Source: Vulcanimicrobiota bacterium (lineage in GTDB: Bacteria > Vulcanimicrobiota > Xenobia > Xenobiales > JADMJV01). Taken from it: a stretch of 64,000 nt of DNA. Location: positions 128,001-192,000 of the forward strand of contig JBFWNU010000008.1 in NCBI GenBank assembly GCA_050250895.1. Reading direction: 5' to 3'. Shown in pieces: positions 34,471-48,322 of this stretch; position 1 is the first letter of the stretch; every line of letters begins with the position of its first letter. The notes below the pieces were generated by a model, which did not search any database, was not told the DNA's origin, and saw only the letters and a list, made by a program, of their open reading frames with translations. A program made the position numbers and the translations under genes.

Positions 34471-34500
34471 CAGTTTTCGTGTCAGACTGTCAAAGAAGGG

Positions 34501-34776
34501 GAGACGGCGCTGACGCGCGGAGATTTCGGCCTGACGGCCGACGGGGAGCGCCGACTTCGTCGGCGGGAGGGAGCCGGCGCTGGCGCGCGGAGATTTCGGC
34601 CTGCGGCCGACAGGGAGCGCCGACTTCGTCGGCGGGTGAGGAGCCGGCGCTGACGCGCGGAGATTTCGGCCTGCGGCCGACAGGGAGAGCGGCTGACGCC
34701 GCTGGAAGGAGCCGGCGCTGCGCGCGGAGATTTCGGCCTGCGGCCGACAGGGAGCGCCGACTTCGTCGGCGGGTGA
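34501..34776. repeat. Four ~70-bp tandem units, each with three mini-palindromes (left arm of element C)
   Basis: gagccggcgctgacgcgcggagatttcggcctgcggccgacagggagcgccgacttcgtcggcggg repeated. Confidence 0.9.
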
Positions 34777-34780
34777 CCTT

Positions 34781-35077
34781 TTCCCGAACTGAGCGACAGC
34801 TCAGTTCGCTCCTTCCCGGCCCGAAGGGCCGCTCCTTATCCCTCGAGCGAAGCAAGAGCTCCTTCTCCCGAACTGAGCGACAGCTCAGTTCGCTCCTCTC
34901 CCGGCCCGAAGGGCCGCTCCTTATCCCTCGAGCGAAGCAAGAGCTCCTTCTCCCGACTGAGCGACAGCTCAGTCGCTCCTCTCCCGGCCCGAAGGGCCGC
35001 TCCTTATCCCTCGAGCGAAGCAAGAGCTCCTTCTCCCGAACTGAGCGACAGCTCAGTTCGCTCCTCTCCCGCGAGGG
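34781..35077. repeat. About 3.5 ~85-bp tandem units of TCCC-hairpin-GCTCC modules (right arm of element C)
   Basis: cccgaactgagcgacagctcagttcgctcc..cccggcccgaagggccgctcc..ccctcgagcgaagcaagagctcc repeated. Confidence 0.9.
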
Positions 35078-44415: not shown

Positions 44416-45696
44416 ATGAGTAAGCAAGAATTTATCCGAAACCTGGAAGCCCGCTGGCAAAGCGAGGCTCGCTGGAAAGGCATCCAGCGCCCCTATTCGG
44501 CCGAGGACGTCTGGCGTTTGCGCGGCTCGTTCGAGATCGAATACACCCTGGCCAAGATGGGTGCCGACCGACTCTGGAAGTTACTCCATAGCGAAGACTA
44601 CGTCAATGTGCTTTCGGCCGTGACCGGCAATCAGGCCATCCAGGAAGTGCAGGCCGGCCTGAAGGCCATTTATGTCAGTGGCTGGCAGGTGGCTGGCGAT
44701 ATGAACAACGCCATGCACATGTACCCGGACCAAAGCCTCTATCCCAGCAACAGTGTGCCCTTCCTGATCCGCCGCATCAACAATTCGCTGATGCGGGCCG
44801 ACCAGATCCACCACCTGGGTGGCGACACCTCGGTTCACTGGATGGCTCCCATCGTAGCCGACGCTGAAGCTGGTTTCGGTGGTCCCTTGCACGCCTTCGA
44901 GATCATGAAGGATATGATCGAAAATGGCGTAGCCGGTGTGCACTTTGAAGACCAGTTGGCCTCGGTCAAAAAATGCGGCCACCTGGGCGGCAAGGTGCTG
45001 GTGCCCACCCGCGAATTCGTGACCAAGCTCGTGGCTGCTCGCCTGGCCGCCGACGTCTGCGGCGTGGACACCATTCTCATTGCTCGCACGGATGCCGATA
45101 GCGCCGGTCTGCTAACCTCGGATGTCGACCCCTACGACCACGACTATATCACCAGTCAAGAGCGCACTCACGAGGGCTTCTTCCCAGTCAAGCCCGGAGT
45201 CGAGCAGGCCATCGCTCGCGGCCTGGCCTATGCTCCCTTCGCCGACCTGCTGTGGATGGAGACCTCGCACCCTGACCTCGGTCAGGCCCAGCAGTTCGCT
45301 GACGCCATCCACGCCAAATTCCCCGGGAAGATGCTGGCCTATAACTGCTCGCCGTCGTTCAACTGGCGCCTCAAGCTCTCTGAAGCCGAGTGCGAAGCCT
45401 TCCAGCGCGAGATCGGCAAGATGGGCTACAAGTTCCAGTTCGTCACTCTGTCGGCGTTCCACCAGCTCAACTACGGCATGTTCCGTCTGGCCCAGGGCTA
45501 CAAGGCCCGCGGCATGGCTGCCTACGCCGAGCTGCAGACGGCCGAGTTCGAAGCCGAGAAAGACGGCTACGAAGCCATTCGCCACCAACAGTTTGTGGGT
45601 ACCGGATATTTCGACGCCGTCACCGAGGTGGCCACCGGTGGCCAATCCTCGACCACGGCCATGGCCGGTTCGACCGAGGCCGAACAGTTTCACTAG
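44416..45696 (+). CDS. aceA: Isocitrate lyase
   Basis: [11 protein letters not shown] catalytic signature, [20 protein letters not shown]. Confidence 0.97.
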
Positions 45697-46161
45697 GCGC
45701 TCGCTTCGCTCGCGCCGGGGAGCTGCGACGGCTTTGCCGTCGAGAAAGGAGCTGCGACGGCTTTGCCGTCGAGAAAGGAGCGCCGGCTGCGCCGTCGAGA
45801 GGGGAGCCGGGCTGCGCCCGGAGATGGGAGCGCTGGCTTCGCTTGCGCTCGCCAGCGAGGACGGCTTCGCCGTCGGCAGCCAGGCCCTTCGTGGCCGAAG
45901 GCCATCGAAGGTTTGCGGCCGCAGGCCGCCTATCTAATCCCTCGAAACGAGCGACAGCGAGTTTCGCTCCTATCTCGGAGCTTGCTCCGCTCCCATCTCA
46001 AGCCGAAGGCTGCTCCTTTCTCGGCCACGCAGTGGCCGCTTCCTTCTCGCGAGCAACGCGAGCGTCGGCTCCTTTCTCAGCCACGCAGTGGCCGCTCCCT
46101 TCTCGCGAGCGTAGCGAGCGTTGCTCCTTTTCTCGGCCACGCAGTGGCCGCTCCCTACTCG
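45697..46161. repeat. Branched palindromic element A: GGAGC-hairpin-GAGA array facing a TCTC-hairpin-GCTCC array
   Basis: About 5 left and 8 right modules around a central tatctaatcc; includes a 29-bp tandem at 45719-45776. Confidence 0.85.
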
Positions 46162-46536
46162 CTACTGGGCCTGAGGTTCTGCCAAGAGTCTGCGACTCAG
46201 GCCTGTCAAGATGCGTCGCATCTCGGCGATGCAGCCCATCACTTGCTTGAGGTCTTCGGGACGCAGATACTCGAGCTTCAAGCTAATCAGAAACAGAGTT
46301 TCCACCTCGGCCAGACTTCCCCGCGCGACTCCCACATGGTAAGCGAAGGTGCGAACGGATTCGCGCGCCTGCCCCTCGGCGAGGTTGGCGACGATGGAGA
46401 CACTAGCTCGACGAAGTTGGCTTGTCAGGCCAAACTGTTCATTGCTCGGGAGGCGGCTTGTCAGTCGATAGACGAGCGGAACGAATTCCATTCCCTTTTG
46501 CCAGGCTGCGAGTTGTTTGTATGGTAAATGATGCAT
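46162..46536 (-). CDS. Four-helix-bundle protein (23S rRNA IVP/Avd-like)
   Basis: YKQLAAWQK, P.NEQFGLTSQLRRASVSIVANLAEG, ARGSLAEVET family signature. Confidence 0.9.
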   Translation of the reverse strand: MHHLPYKQLAAWQKGMEFVPLVYRLTSRLPSNEQFGLTSQLRRASVSIVANLAEGQARESVRTFAYHVGVARGSLAEVETLFLISLKLEYLRPEDLKQVMGCIAEMRRILTGLSRRLLAEPQAQ

Positions 46537-46585
46537 CGAGGCTTCTTCGACCCGACGTTTGCCGCTCCCGTCGAACGAATGTCCA

Positions 46586-47008
46586 GAGCGACGGCTTTGC
46601 CGAGGATCGCCGGCTGCGCCGTCGAGACAGGAGCGCTCGCTGCGCTCGCGAGATGGGAGCGCTGGCTTCGCTTGCGCTCGCCAGCGAGGAGGGAGCGCCG
46701 GCTGCGCCGTCGAGACAGGAGCCGGGCTGCGCCCGGAGATGGGAGCACTGGCCTCGCTTGCGCTCGCCAGCGAGGACGGCTTCGCCGTCGAAGGTTTGCG
46801 GCCGCAGGCCGCCTATCTAATCCCTCGAAACGAGCGACAGCGAGTTTCGCTCCCATCTCGGAGCTCTGCTCCGGTCCCATCTCCGGCCGAAGGCCGGCTC
46901 CTTTCTCGGCCACGCAGTGGCCGCTCCCTTCTCGCGAGCGTAGCGAGCGTTGCTCCTTTCTCGGCCACGCAGTGGCCGCTCCCCTTCTCGCGAGCGTAGC
47001 GAGCGAAC
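46586..47008. repeat. Branched palindromic element B, a direct-orientation relative of element A
   Basis: Shares long near-identical blocks with A (46692 onward matches 45777 onward; centre 46814 matches 45931). Confidence 0.85.
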
Positions 47009-47089
47009 ATGGCCCGAACGGGTGATTGGCAGGCCAGGGTGCCTCCCGTATGCTTGAAAGCAAATCTACCCTTGGGAGGCGCATTTCCT

Positions 47090-48322
47090 ATGGAAAGCGG
47101 ACACATCGCCTGGATGCTCTTGAGCACAGCGCTGGTGTTGTTGATGACGCCCGGTCTGGCCTTTTTCTACGGCGGGCTGGTGCGGTCCAAGAACACCCTT
47201 AACACCATGATGATGAGCTTCGCGGCGCTGGGTGTCATCGGGATTACCTGGGCGTTGGTCGGCTACAGTCTGGCCTTCGGTGGGGCCGGAAAGTGGCTCG
47301 GCGGAGGCGCCCATCTGCTCTTGCAGGGCGTTGACCTGCAAGCAAAAGGCTCCATTCCGCACCTATTGTTCATGGCTTTCCAGGGAACCTTCGCGGTGAT
47401 CACCGCAGCTCTCATTTCGGGCGCCATTGTGGGCAGGATGCGGTTTGCCCCGTACCTGGCCTTCATCACGCTGTGGAGTCTGCTGGTTTATGCTCCGCTT
47501 TGCCACTGGGTATGGGGTGAAGGTGGCTGGTTGGCCGGCCTGGGAGCCCTCGATTTCGCGGGCGGCACGGTGGTTCACATCAACGCCGGTGTAGCCGCTC
47601 TGGTATTGGCGCTGGTGTTGGGCCCCCGCAGCGAGCACGGGCGCCTGGCCATGCTCGCTCACAACGTTCCCTTCGTGATTCTCGGTTCGGCTATGCTGTG
47701 GTTCGGATGGTTCGGTTTCAACGGCGGCAGCGCCCTCGAGGCCAACGAACAGGGCGTGCTGGCTTTCGTCAACACCATGCTGGCTCCGATGGCAACCCTG
47801 GTGGTCTGGATGCTCACCGACCTGGTGCGTGATCACCGCGCCAATGCGGTGGGGGCGGCCACGGCGGTGGTGGTCGGATTGGTGGCCATTACCCCGGCGG
47901 CCGGGTTCGTGTCGCCTCTGTCAGCCATCCTGATCGGCGCTATTGCAACCTTCCCCAGCTATATTGCTATCCAGATGAAGCACAAATGGGCCCTCGATGA
48001 CTCGCTCGATGTGTTCGCTGGCCACGGGCTCGGTGGTATCGTAGGGGCAATGCTGACCGGTGTTTTTGCTAACTCGGCGTGGGGCGGCTCGGCGATGGGC
48101 GGGTTTACCCAGGTCGGCATCCAGTTCGCGGCCGTGCTGGCTGCCGCGGCTTACAGCGCTATCGCGTCGTTTGCCCTGATCAAGCTGGTAGGGGCCTTCA
48201 TGGCCTTGCGTCCTCAGGTTCAGGAAGAGGGTCTGGGACTCGACATCTCTCAGCACGGCGAAGAGGCCTACTCGACCGGCGAGGGCGCTATTCTCATTCT
48301 CTCTCGGAAAAAGGCCGGTTAG
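47090..48322 (+). CDS. amtB: Ammonium transporter
   Basis: LMTPGLAFFYGGLVR, DFAGGTVVHINAG, WFGWFGFNGGS, DDSLDVFAGHG. Confidence 0.96.
   Translation: MESGHIAWMLLSTALVLLMTPGLAFFYGGLVRSKNTLNTMMMSFAALGVIGITWALVGYSLAFGGAGKWLGGGAHLLLQGVDLQAKGSIPHLLFMAFQGTFAVITAALISGAIVGRMRFAPYLAFITLWSLLVYAPLCHWVWGEGGWLAGLGALDFAGGTVVHINAGVAALVLALVLGPRSEHGRLAMLAHNVPFVILGSAMLWFGWFGFNGGSALEANEQGVLAFVNTMLAPMATLVVWMLTDLVRDHRANAVGAATAVVVGLVAITPAAGFVSPLSAILIGAIATFPSYIAIQMKHKWALDDSLDVFAGHGLGGIVGAMLTGVFANSAWGGSAMGGFTQVGIQFAAVLAAAAYSAIASFALIKLVGAFMALRPQVQEEGLGLDISQHGEEAYSTGEGAILILSRKKAG

Follow-up and report, generated by a model that had tools for sequence, protein, structure and literature searches.

A four-helix-bundle gene between two direct copies of a modular repeat dispersed in the genome of a Vulcanimicrobiota bacterium

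The DNA analyzed here, termed the window, is a stretch of 64,000 nucleotides from a Vulcanimicrobiota bacterium (GenBank assembly GCA_050250895.1, contig JBFWNU010000008.1, positions 128,001 to 192,000) which carries at positions 45697-47008 a 1,312-bp insert between aceA and amtB. The insert is made up of a gene encoding a small four-helix-bundle protein of family PF05635, the leader of this gene, and two long hairpin-rich elements, A and B, located on either side (Table 1). The gene and its two flanking elements had been described at this place in an earlier note made from the sequence alone, and this description, its coordinates and the placement between aceA and amtB held on re-examination. 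We report an insertion of defined anatomy, an association between gene and repeat that extends over the genome, an amplification specific to the lineage, and purifying selection acting on the gene.

The gene order around the insert, as obtained by Pfam scans, is folE, RraA-like, aceB, aceA, insert, amtB, P-II and a PilZ gene. The aceA reading frame terminates with a TAG stop codon and element A begins at the very next base (45697), the right end of element B being that of the whole insert. The genome of the window (hereafter G000) was compared within a set of 41 related genomes, G000 included, of which G001 is the sole same-genus member. We detected aceA in 11 of the 21 genomes searched, and amtB within the fetched 1.5 kb after aceA in G000 and G001 only. 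The comparison with relatives that the earlier note had called for revealed an empty site, since 164 nt containing neither gene nor element separate the aceA stop from the amtB ATG in G001. The right junction ATGGCCCG(T/A)(T/A)CGGG is common to both genomes, and the 1,312 bp of G000 take the place of 28 nt containing a T-run in G001. No target-site duplication was identified at the insert.

Alignment of the two elements confirmed what had been proposed about them, namely direct orientation, near-identical blocks, a different number of modules and a 32-nt insertion confined to A. Between A (45769-46120) and B (46684-47005), 301 of the 319 aligned bases were identical, A carrying 1 extra module at its right end and the left approximately 100 columns differing in module content. 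When folding was compared to that of shuffled sequences, z reached -7.7 for A and -9.1 for B, and 0 of 100 shuffles were equally good. On the plus strand, element A reads as a series of hairpin plus GAGAnnGGAGC modules leading into a core (CTATCTAATCCC..., hairpin CGAAACGAGCGACAGCGAGTTTCG), followed by GCTCCnnTCTC plus hairpin modules. The core is asymmetric and contains several hairpins, GAAACTCGCTGTCGCTCGTTTC, GAGGGATTAGATAG and GCGGCCTGCGGCCGC among them, and the modules of the arms are 26-29 nt long, each consisting of a hairpin and an 11-mer. Because every element reads purine array, core, pyrimidine array on either strand, its orientation is defined only by the core and by particular hairpins. 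Inversion is also seen between the two extremities of the insert (GCGCTCGCTTCGCTCGC ... GCGAGCGTAGCGAGCG).

The elements had been called branched palindromes, a term that is partly justified: full pairing of the arms would give a chain of four-way junctions, but complementarity is limited to the 11-nt linkers, which pair imperfectly, the small hairpins of the left and right arms differ, and the arms of A have unequal numbers of modules (8 versus 4). The arrays just upstream and just downstream of the gene are complementary to each other (33 nt at 88%, 46093-46125 versus 46629-46661), so that the gene can be placed in a stem's loop, after the model of an intervening sequence (IVS). The open reading frame (ORF) thus has complementary arms on both sides, which could pair into a long stem broken up by hairpins. 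A scan of positions 45000-47600 against Rfam at E ≤ 1 returned no family, including Gut-1 (RF01706), which the accessible text of Weinberg et al. 2010 (PMC2864571) describes as a candidate non-coding RNA motif from gut metagenomes.

A and B do not stand alone as a pair; we found them to be members of a family dispersed over the whole genome (9.50 Mb in 17 contigs, 99.6% complete). Searches yielded 82 loci similar to A or B and 62 loci similar to the flanks of another PF05635 gene on contig C2, 37 of the latter being new, and after merging the family comprised about 123 mostly gene-less, scattered loci occupying 30,537 of 9,497,728 bases. Arrays of at least 3 linkers numbered 56, the reversed genome giving 0. 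A perfect stem of at least 5 bp was contained in 137 of the 284 linker-spacer-linker units (versus 5 after shuffling), and as these stems had 26 different sequences, the hairpin potential is kept while the sequence varies. The elements are mostly placed behind genes, a gene end facing the element at 82 of 118 loci with a median gap of 6.5 nt, versus 45 of 300 random segments (crude caller based on ORFs and third-position G+C content, GC3), and gene-less elements typically begin within a few bases of a stop codon.

Searching the genome with the PF05635 model identified exactly 3 genes, on contigs C8 (the one described above), C6 and C2, and all 3 displayed the layout element, leader, gene, element, with both elements in direct orientation. 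Read in the direction of the gene, each of the three loci shows purine modules (n), core, pyrimidine modules (m), a leader running TGGACAnnCGTTCGACGGGA ... GTCGAAGAAG, the gene, and the same three-part element again. The C6 and C2 copies also lie between protein-coding regions, and the C2 copy is flanked by a second sub-family with linkers GGGAAAAGGAGC / GCTCCTTTTCCC. By simple arithmetic, the elements and 100-nt margins around them represent about 0.6% of the genome; the fact that 3 of 3 PF05635 genes abut elements is therefore far beyond chance, even if intergenic DNA alone is counted. The core hairpin is present in 14 copies, 5 of which flank PF05635 genes. Two observations had been named beforehand as speaking against a link between gene and elements, that the elements would be scattered with no enrichment near four-helix-bundle genes and that the gene would be syntenically conserved without repeats; scattered as they are, the elements are strongly enriched at these genes, and synteny of the gene is not conserved. 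The lack of a transposase or reverse transcriptase, first remarked for the window, extends to the whole genome for the two families scanned, RVT_1 (PF00078) and Y1_Tnp (PF01797), each with 0 matches, other transposase families lying outside the scan. The same PF01797 search found the Y1 family in 6 of 14 control genomes.

Table 1. Features of the insert, its neighbouring genes and one further element of the window
Feature	Position	Strand	Remarks
aceA (isocitrate lyase), left neighbour	44416..45696	+	PF00463 E 4.8e-101; 89% amino acid identity to the G001 copy
Element A	45697..46161	.	3' of the four-helix-bundle gene; RNA fold z -7.68
A-only 32-nt segment	45873..45904	.	Missing in B; the B-side element of a related strain has it
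PF05635 four-helix-bundle gene, 124 aa	46162..46536	-	PF05635 E 1.2e-31
5' leader, 49 nt	46537..46585	-	Motif TGGACAnnCGTTCGACGGGA, small stem TTCGAC...GTCGAA, then GAAGAAG
Element B	46586..47008	.	Direct copy of A with another module count; upstream of the gene; RNA fold z -9.12
amtB (ammonium transporter), right neighbour	47090..48322	+	PF00909 E 2.4e-115; likely start ATG 47090
Gene-less element, second sub-family (type flanking the C2 gene)	34495..35075	.	Linkers GGGAnnGGAGC / GCTCCnnnCCC

The protein encoded in the window scored 109.5 bits with PF05635 (cut-off 33.8) and 103.3 bits with TIGR02436 (cut-off 24). Its C6 and C2 paralogues were likewise above both cut-offs, the three proteins being divergent (55-57% identity). 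Homology to 2RLD and to XCC0516, a pentamer of solved structure (2GSC; 5 chains in the entry; E 4e-24), predicts that it forms a pentameric ring of four-helix bundles. The PADLOC anti-phage models matched none of the three paralogues at E ≤ 0.01. TIGR02436/PF05635 proteins are very common across bacterial phyla and, to our knowledge, no function has been assigned to them since their discovery in the intervening sequences of ribosomal RNA (rRNA). The leader motif and its stem are common to all three PF05635 genes of the genome, and no sigma-70-like match was detected on the strand of the four-helix-bundle gene by a promoter scan. We rejected the leader motif as a cassette-specific signal since a copy with one mismatch (TGGACAnnCGTTCGAC.GGA, stem, GTCGAAG) stands upstream of an unrelated 471-aa ORF (G000:C1:2716982, minus strand), a putative ComM/YifB-type ATPase; the motif may rather be a general 5' regulatory or promoter element. 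Two weaker copies were observed at C1:3787984 and C1:2965364.

Variation at the locus could be followed in contigs from four DNA metagenome runs belonging to three studies, the single-strain origin of which is assumed from similar depth only; no RNA run containing it was found. In a related strain from sludge and wastewater, aceA was joined to an element A with two fewer modules (joint 45697->45755; runs X1 and X2), and the B-side element lacked the left modules and contained the 32-nt segment (joint 46603->45886; X1, X2 and X3). The divergence from G000 amounted to 8 of 467 bases (1.7%) for the gene (46165-46536) versus 48 of 696 (6.9%) for aceA and amtB taken together (Fisher p 3e-5; runs X1-X3 and X6). 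All six listed differences within the gene were synonymous third positions, indicating that the protein is under purifying selection. The cassette is moreover younger than its surroundings or was homogenised relative to them, and its low divergence hints at recent exchange, spread or conversion. A further joint, 45875->46690, was assigned to other repeat copies, its depth exceeding that of the locus and its shorter side covering 33 nt.

Among the 41 genomes, a homologue was found in 2 with the protein as query and in 3 with the PF05635 model, namely three genes in G000, two in G018 and three fragments, one with four stops, in G030, G018 being the only relative with intact PF05635 genes. Element B DNA was found in G000 only. 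The pattern linker-N10-24-linker occurred 285 times in G000 (control 1), once in G021 and 0 times in the 39 other relatives. One of the two G018 genes, 47% identical to the window gene, is flanked by arms of plain heptamers, GGGAGAT upstream and ATCTCCC downstream, a heptamer whose GGGAG word is also that of the G000 linker GAGATGGGAGC. For three tandem GGGAGNN units, the count was 374 in G018 (control 0), with no match in G000 and not more than one in any of the 40 remaining genomes. The G018 matches include gene-less hairpins made up of purine heptamers, about 75 nt and pyrimidine heptamers, directly after a stop codon. The two genomes thus offer a natural comparison: among the 41, these two alone have intact genes, and in these two alone was the arm word of a cassette amplified hundreds of times, in two styles, as hairpin-interrupted 11-mers in G000 versus plain heptamers in G018.

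The second G018 gene (L004, G018:C21:86215-89565) has GTTGAGA repeats on its downstream side only and begins right at the stop of the ORF preceding it; the flanking ORFs, on the same strand, are presumably hisF and hisH, as recognised by eye. In the 2.4-Mb relative G030, the decayed or truncated copies (L243 on C174, L244 on C166) lie in A+T-rich DNA with heptamer arms of the AATTAGT / CAATTAA type and are preceded by a tandemly repeated unit of approximately 120 nt.

Beyond these relatives, a scan with one genome per species gave 80 loci from many phyla, at most 50% identical, 76 of which were evaluable. Inverted arms within 200 nt of the gene were present at z ≥ 6 in 42 of the 76, with a period of 7 or 14 in 38 of these 42 and a purine-rich upstream arm in 33. 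A locus in Tepidiformaceae (Chloroflexota; L088, genome G041) carries hairpin plus linker arms (TGAGTGGAGC / GCTCCACTCA, terminal unit GCTCGCTTCGCTCGC) with the gene inside the fold-back; this genome contains a single PF05635 gene, and these modules recur at 5 places without a gene (12 matches, control 0). Modular arms of this style are therefore found outside G000 too; G000 alone shows amplification on such a scale and a gene standing between two complete fold-backs. A metagenome scan for three linkers in a row yielded at least 119 stretches, 80 of which were retrieved, most matches looking like chance or coding repeats; at least 2 hairpin units were present in L167 only, and a relative of PF05635 in L147 only. 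L167 (440-590; activated sludge, low G+C) carries at a gene end four tandem 30-nt units, each a CACGC..GCGTG hairpin and a pyrimidine-rich linker (GCTCCCTCCTCCATCCT), and thus shows the same grammar in an unrelated organism, with no four-helix-bundle gene within its 2 kb.

The arrangement recalls the ORF-bearing IVSs in the 23S rRNA of Coxiella burnetii and Leptospira (S23p ORF), which, in the accessible text of PMC4990558, combine a PF05635 protein, complementary arms around the ORF and short tandem words and are regarded as selfish insertions of patchy distribution. The same text reports for C. burnetii that the complementary ends are cut by RNase III and that GACAGAT heptamers precede the ORF. 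PF05635 has been linked to rRNA IVSs in the available parts of PMC4990558 and bioRxiv 10.1101/2024.02.27.582315, and to cas neighbourhoods (PMC3936711). In contrast to these IVSs, the present insert lies not in an rRNA gene but between aceA and amtB, its arms are built of hairpin plus 11-mer modules instead of plain repeats, and its gene is found not inside one fold-back but between two complete direct ones, with approximately 120 gene-less copies elsewhere. The cassettes of integrons, which carry attC sites, comprise a small ORF and imperfect palindromes that fold as single strands. A promoter-poor small ORF between two direct imperfect palindromes resembles such cassettes, and a circle would be a natural route to this layout; the elements described here differ from attC in being far longer, modular and mostly without an adjoining gene.

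We put at about even the chance that the insert is what it appears to be, probably a selfish, ORF-bearing cassette of the IVS type located outside rRNA, with elaborated arms, the gene-less derivatives of which have multiplied in the manner of MITEs, the miniature inverted-repeat class of transposable elements, or of bacterial interspersed mosaic elements (BIMEs). The gene-less copies are short, terminally inverted, multi-copy and non-coding like MITEs, and display insertion polymorphism, the G001 site being empty. A small selfish or regulatory unit had been suggested at the outset, and it is the selfish part that gains from the empty G001 site, from the restriction of PF05635 to 3 of 41 genomes, from the 3 of 3 sandwiched genes and from the amplified arm words. 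A unit of gene plus element could recombine, as a circle, with a resident gene-less element and so place the gene between two direct copies; alternatively, unequal crossing-over between tandem elements could produce the same sandwich. Recombination between the two direct copies would then excise the gene again, and we infer that the gene probably moves by recombination between elements. The PF05635 protein is the only one consistently tied to these repeats, and its repeated co-occurrence with them together with its ring architecture suggests that the pentamer binds the repeated word in single-stranded RNA or DNA. A single-stranded ligand is favoured because hairpins, when folded out, would bring the 11-mers side by side as in a plain heptamer array. 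As for the elements, their probable role is that of RNA 3'-end structures tolerated by the host.

Several observations weigh against the interpretation as a selfish cassette. Canonical cassettes hold their gene inside a fold-back, whereas here it stands between two, a difference which nothing tested explains. The contigs of the four metagenome runs, in which the excised circle and the single-element allele suggested by the earlier note were looked for, contained no circle junction, no single-element allele assignable to this locus and no empty aceA-amtB allele. The sandwich is not exclusive to PF05635, since a toxin-antitoxin-like pair (DUF433 and DUF5615/PIN-like; C9:188816-190911, L115) also lies between two direct multi-copy mosaic elements, only 1 of the 5 DUF433 genes of the genome being so placed. 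For every gene there are about 40 gene-less copies, and in view of this excess and of the lack of a known catalytic activity the protein cannot be called the engine of the spread. The C8 and C6 copies use one arm family though their proteins are only 55% identical, which does not look like a tight co-evolution of protein and word. As the arms are only partly complementary and their module numbers unequal, the oriented arrays of words may be more important than the branched palindrome. Furthermore, the word patterns were derived from the genomes where they abound, so that their absence from relatives indicates recency or lineage-specific amplification only and does not speak against repeat families of another kind in these; related genomes are not independent samples, and G001 is in 640 contigs, in which repeats may be under-assembled.

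Part of this evidence would also suit a host-tolerated family of independent origin resembling repetitive extragenic palindromes (REPs) and BIMEs, the elements serving as 3'-end hairpins, terminators or RNA stabilisers. PF05635 cassettes and toxin-antitoxin pairs would land in or recombine with them, owing to the common GGGAG word in the arms or to hairpins being preferred targets, and the protein would be idle as far as the elements are concerned. The REPs and BIMEs of Proteobacteria, associated with REP-associated tyrosine transposases (RAYTs; the REPIN systems), are intergenic palindromic units joined by linkers into mosaics, present in dozens to hundreds of copies per genome, lineage-specific and located at gene 3' ends, and one associated protein gene is itself flanked by repeats. 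The present family shares with them the linker-joined palindromic mosaics, the lineage specificity, the position at gene 3' ends and the repeat-flanked protein gene, and differs by its unit grammar and by a small helical bundle without known catalytic site in place of a Y1 (IS200/IS605-type) transposase. The proportion of loci facing a gene end, at a gap of a few nucleotides, is in line with a REP-like nature, as are the terminator-like scores of the R-type (GCTCCnnTCTC-side) modules, the sandwiched DUF433 and PIN-like pair, the vast excess of gene-less copies and the fact that the insert took the place of a terminator-like stretch with a T-run. Such a family would leave unexplained why only the two genomes with intact PF05635 genes show an amplified arm word (285 and 374 versus at most 1) and why G041 combines a gene-bearing copy with gene-less ones, and the genome contains no RAYT-type transposase to spread it; with 0 matches to PF01797, membership in the REP/RAYT (REPIN) class proper was rejected. 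We hold this explanation to be rather unlikely. A domesticated regulator strikes us as quite improbable: the protein would be a TRAP-like pentameric RNA binder acting in trans on the approximately 120 elements in 3' untranslated regions and, for autoregulation, on its own flanks, thereby controlling mRNA decay or termination. Purifying selection on the gene, a leader with stem and purine-rich tract conserved in all three copies, oriented arrays of a conserved word beside many gene ends and the ring-shaped homologue 2GSC agree with such a role, but a core regulator would hardly be lacking, as this gene is, in 38 of 40 relatives and in the same-genus genome, and the divergence of the three paralogues makes them look like separate acquisitions.

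It is very hard to credit that the protein serves a diversity-generating retroelement (DGR) or another reverse transcriptase as an accessory in the manner of Avd, with the elements as template RNAs. According to the accessible text of PMC10053308, Avd is a homologous four-helix-bundle pentamer and PF05635 is the Pfam family that most resembles it; a presumed binding of nucleic acids would be a further likeness. The distant family resemblance to Avd that the earlier note had pointed out is indeed reflected in a weak similarity to the Avd model NF033474 (E 1.9e-4), but the score of 21.7 bits lies below the cut-off of 80, the genome, 99.6% complete, has no RVT_1 match, and no pair of template and variable repeats is evident, so that such a role is close to refuted and membership in the DGR/Avd class was rejected. 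An assembly artefact, in which mis-joined repeats would mimic a sandwich, is scarcely plausible either. Repeat-rich regions are error-prone and one array on contig C1 holds a run of N, but in independent metagenome contigs the aceA 3' end is joined to A modules (X1 and X2) and the gene to the B-side core (X1, X2 and X3; two studies), and the same layout was found at three loci on three contigs.

A broader version of the cassette reading, which we regard as unlikely, is that PF05635 pentamers are the trans-acting partner of the whole class of prokaryotic short-word repeats (GGGAGAT in G018, GGGAATC in Xanthomonas, cyanobacterial heptamers and hairpin-interrupted arrays), the arm word of an acquired gene being copied over the genome without transposase or reverse transcriptase. 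Protein-stabilised single-stranded fold-backs might provoke template switching or recombination and thus bring about the copying. If so, a mobile system of a new kind would be at hand, and one of the largest families listed as unknown would gain a function. Short tandem heptamer repeats and REP-like mosaics are, as far as we know, unexplained in most lineages. The heptamer families GGGAATC of Xanthomonas, with about 70 convergent inverted pairs, and GGGGA(C/T)T of Nostoc form genome-wide, intergenic, G-rich arrays for which the accessible text of PMC4692102 gives no protein partner; this text does not connect them with PF05635 or S23p and contains 0 occurrences of '23S', 'S23' and 'four-helix'. 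X. campestris is the source of XCC0516, the PF05635 pentamer of solved structure. The words described here differ from those heptamers in being separated by hairpins. In the literature searched, outside of which most subscription journals lie, no paper tied PF05635 or S23p genes to genome-wide repeat families.

New in the present work are arms interrupted by hairpins, the placement of the gene between two direct fold-backs in each of its three copies, a BIME-like burst in a genome lacking a RAYT, and the comparison of G000 with G018. A puzzling protein family is thereby tied to a puzzling kind of repeat, in more than 100 copies in one bacterium, and the G000/G018 contrast together with the empty site of the sister species makes the link between protein and repeat directly testable. 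If the insert is indeed a selfish cassette, such cassettes can seed a BIME-like repeat family without a RAYT transposase.

Some minor features were observed besides. The longest amtB ORF starts at 47009, and the alignment with G001 amtB begins at residue 27 of this long ORF. Just past the right end of the insert, and 36 nt before the likely start of amtB, there is a sigma-70-like match (TTGGCA-17 nt-TATGCT, 47026-47054), and amtB may therefore keep its own promoter, as far as a consensus match can tell. The gene-less element at 34495-35075 is composed of modules of approximately 60 nt with GGGAnnGGAGC, followed by GCTCCnnnCCC plus hairpin modules, and has one long ORF on either side. Finally, 14 nearly identical modules of 26 nt (GAGAAGGGAGC + CTTCGCTGCGCTCAG) form an array, broken by a run of N, at G000:C1:519805-520160, and beside it a stretch of approximately 750 nt (C1:520288-521007) carries a different internal repeat.

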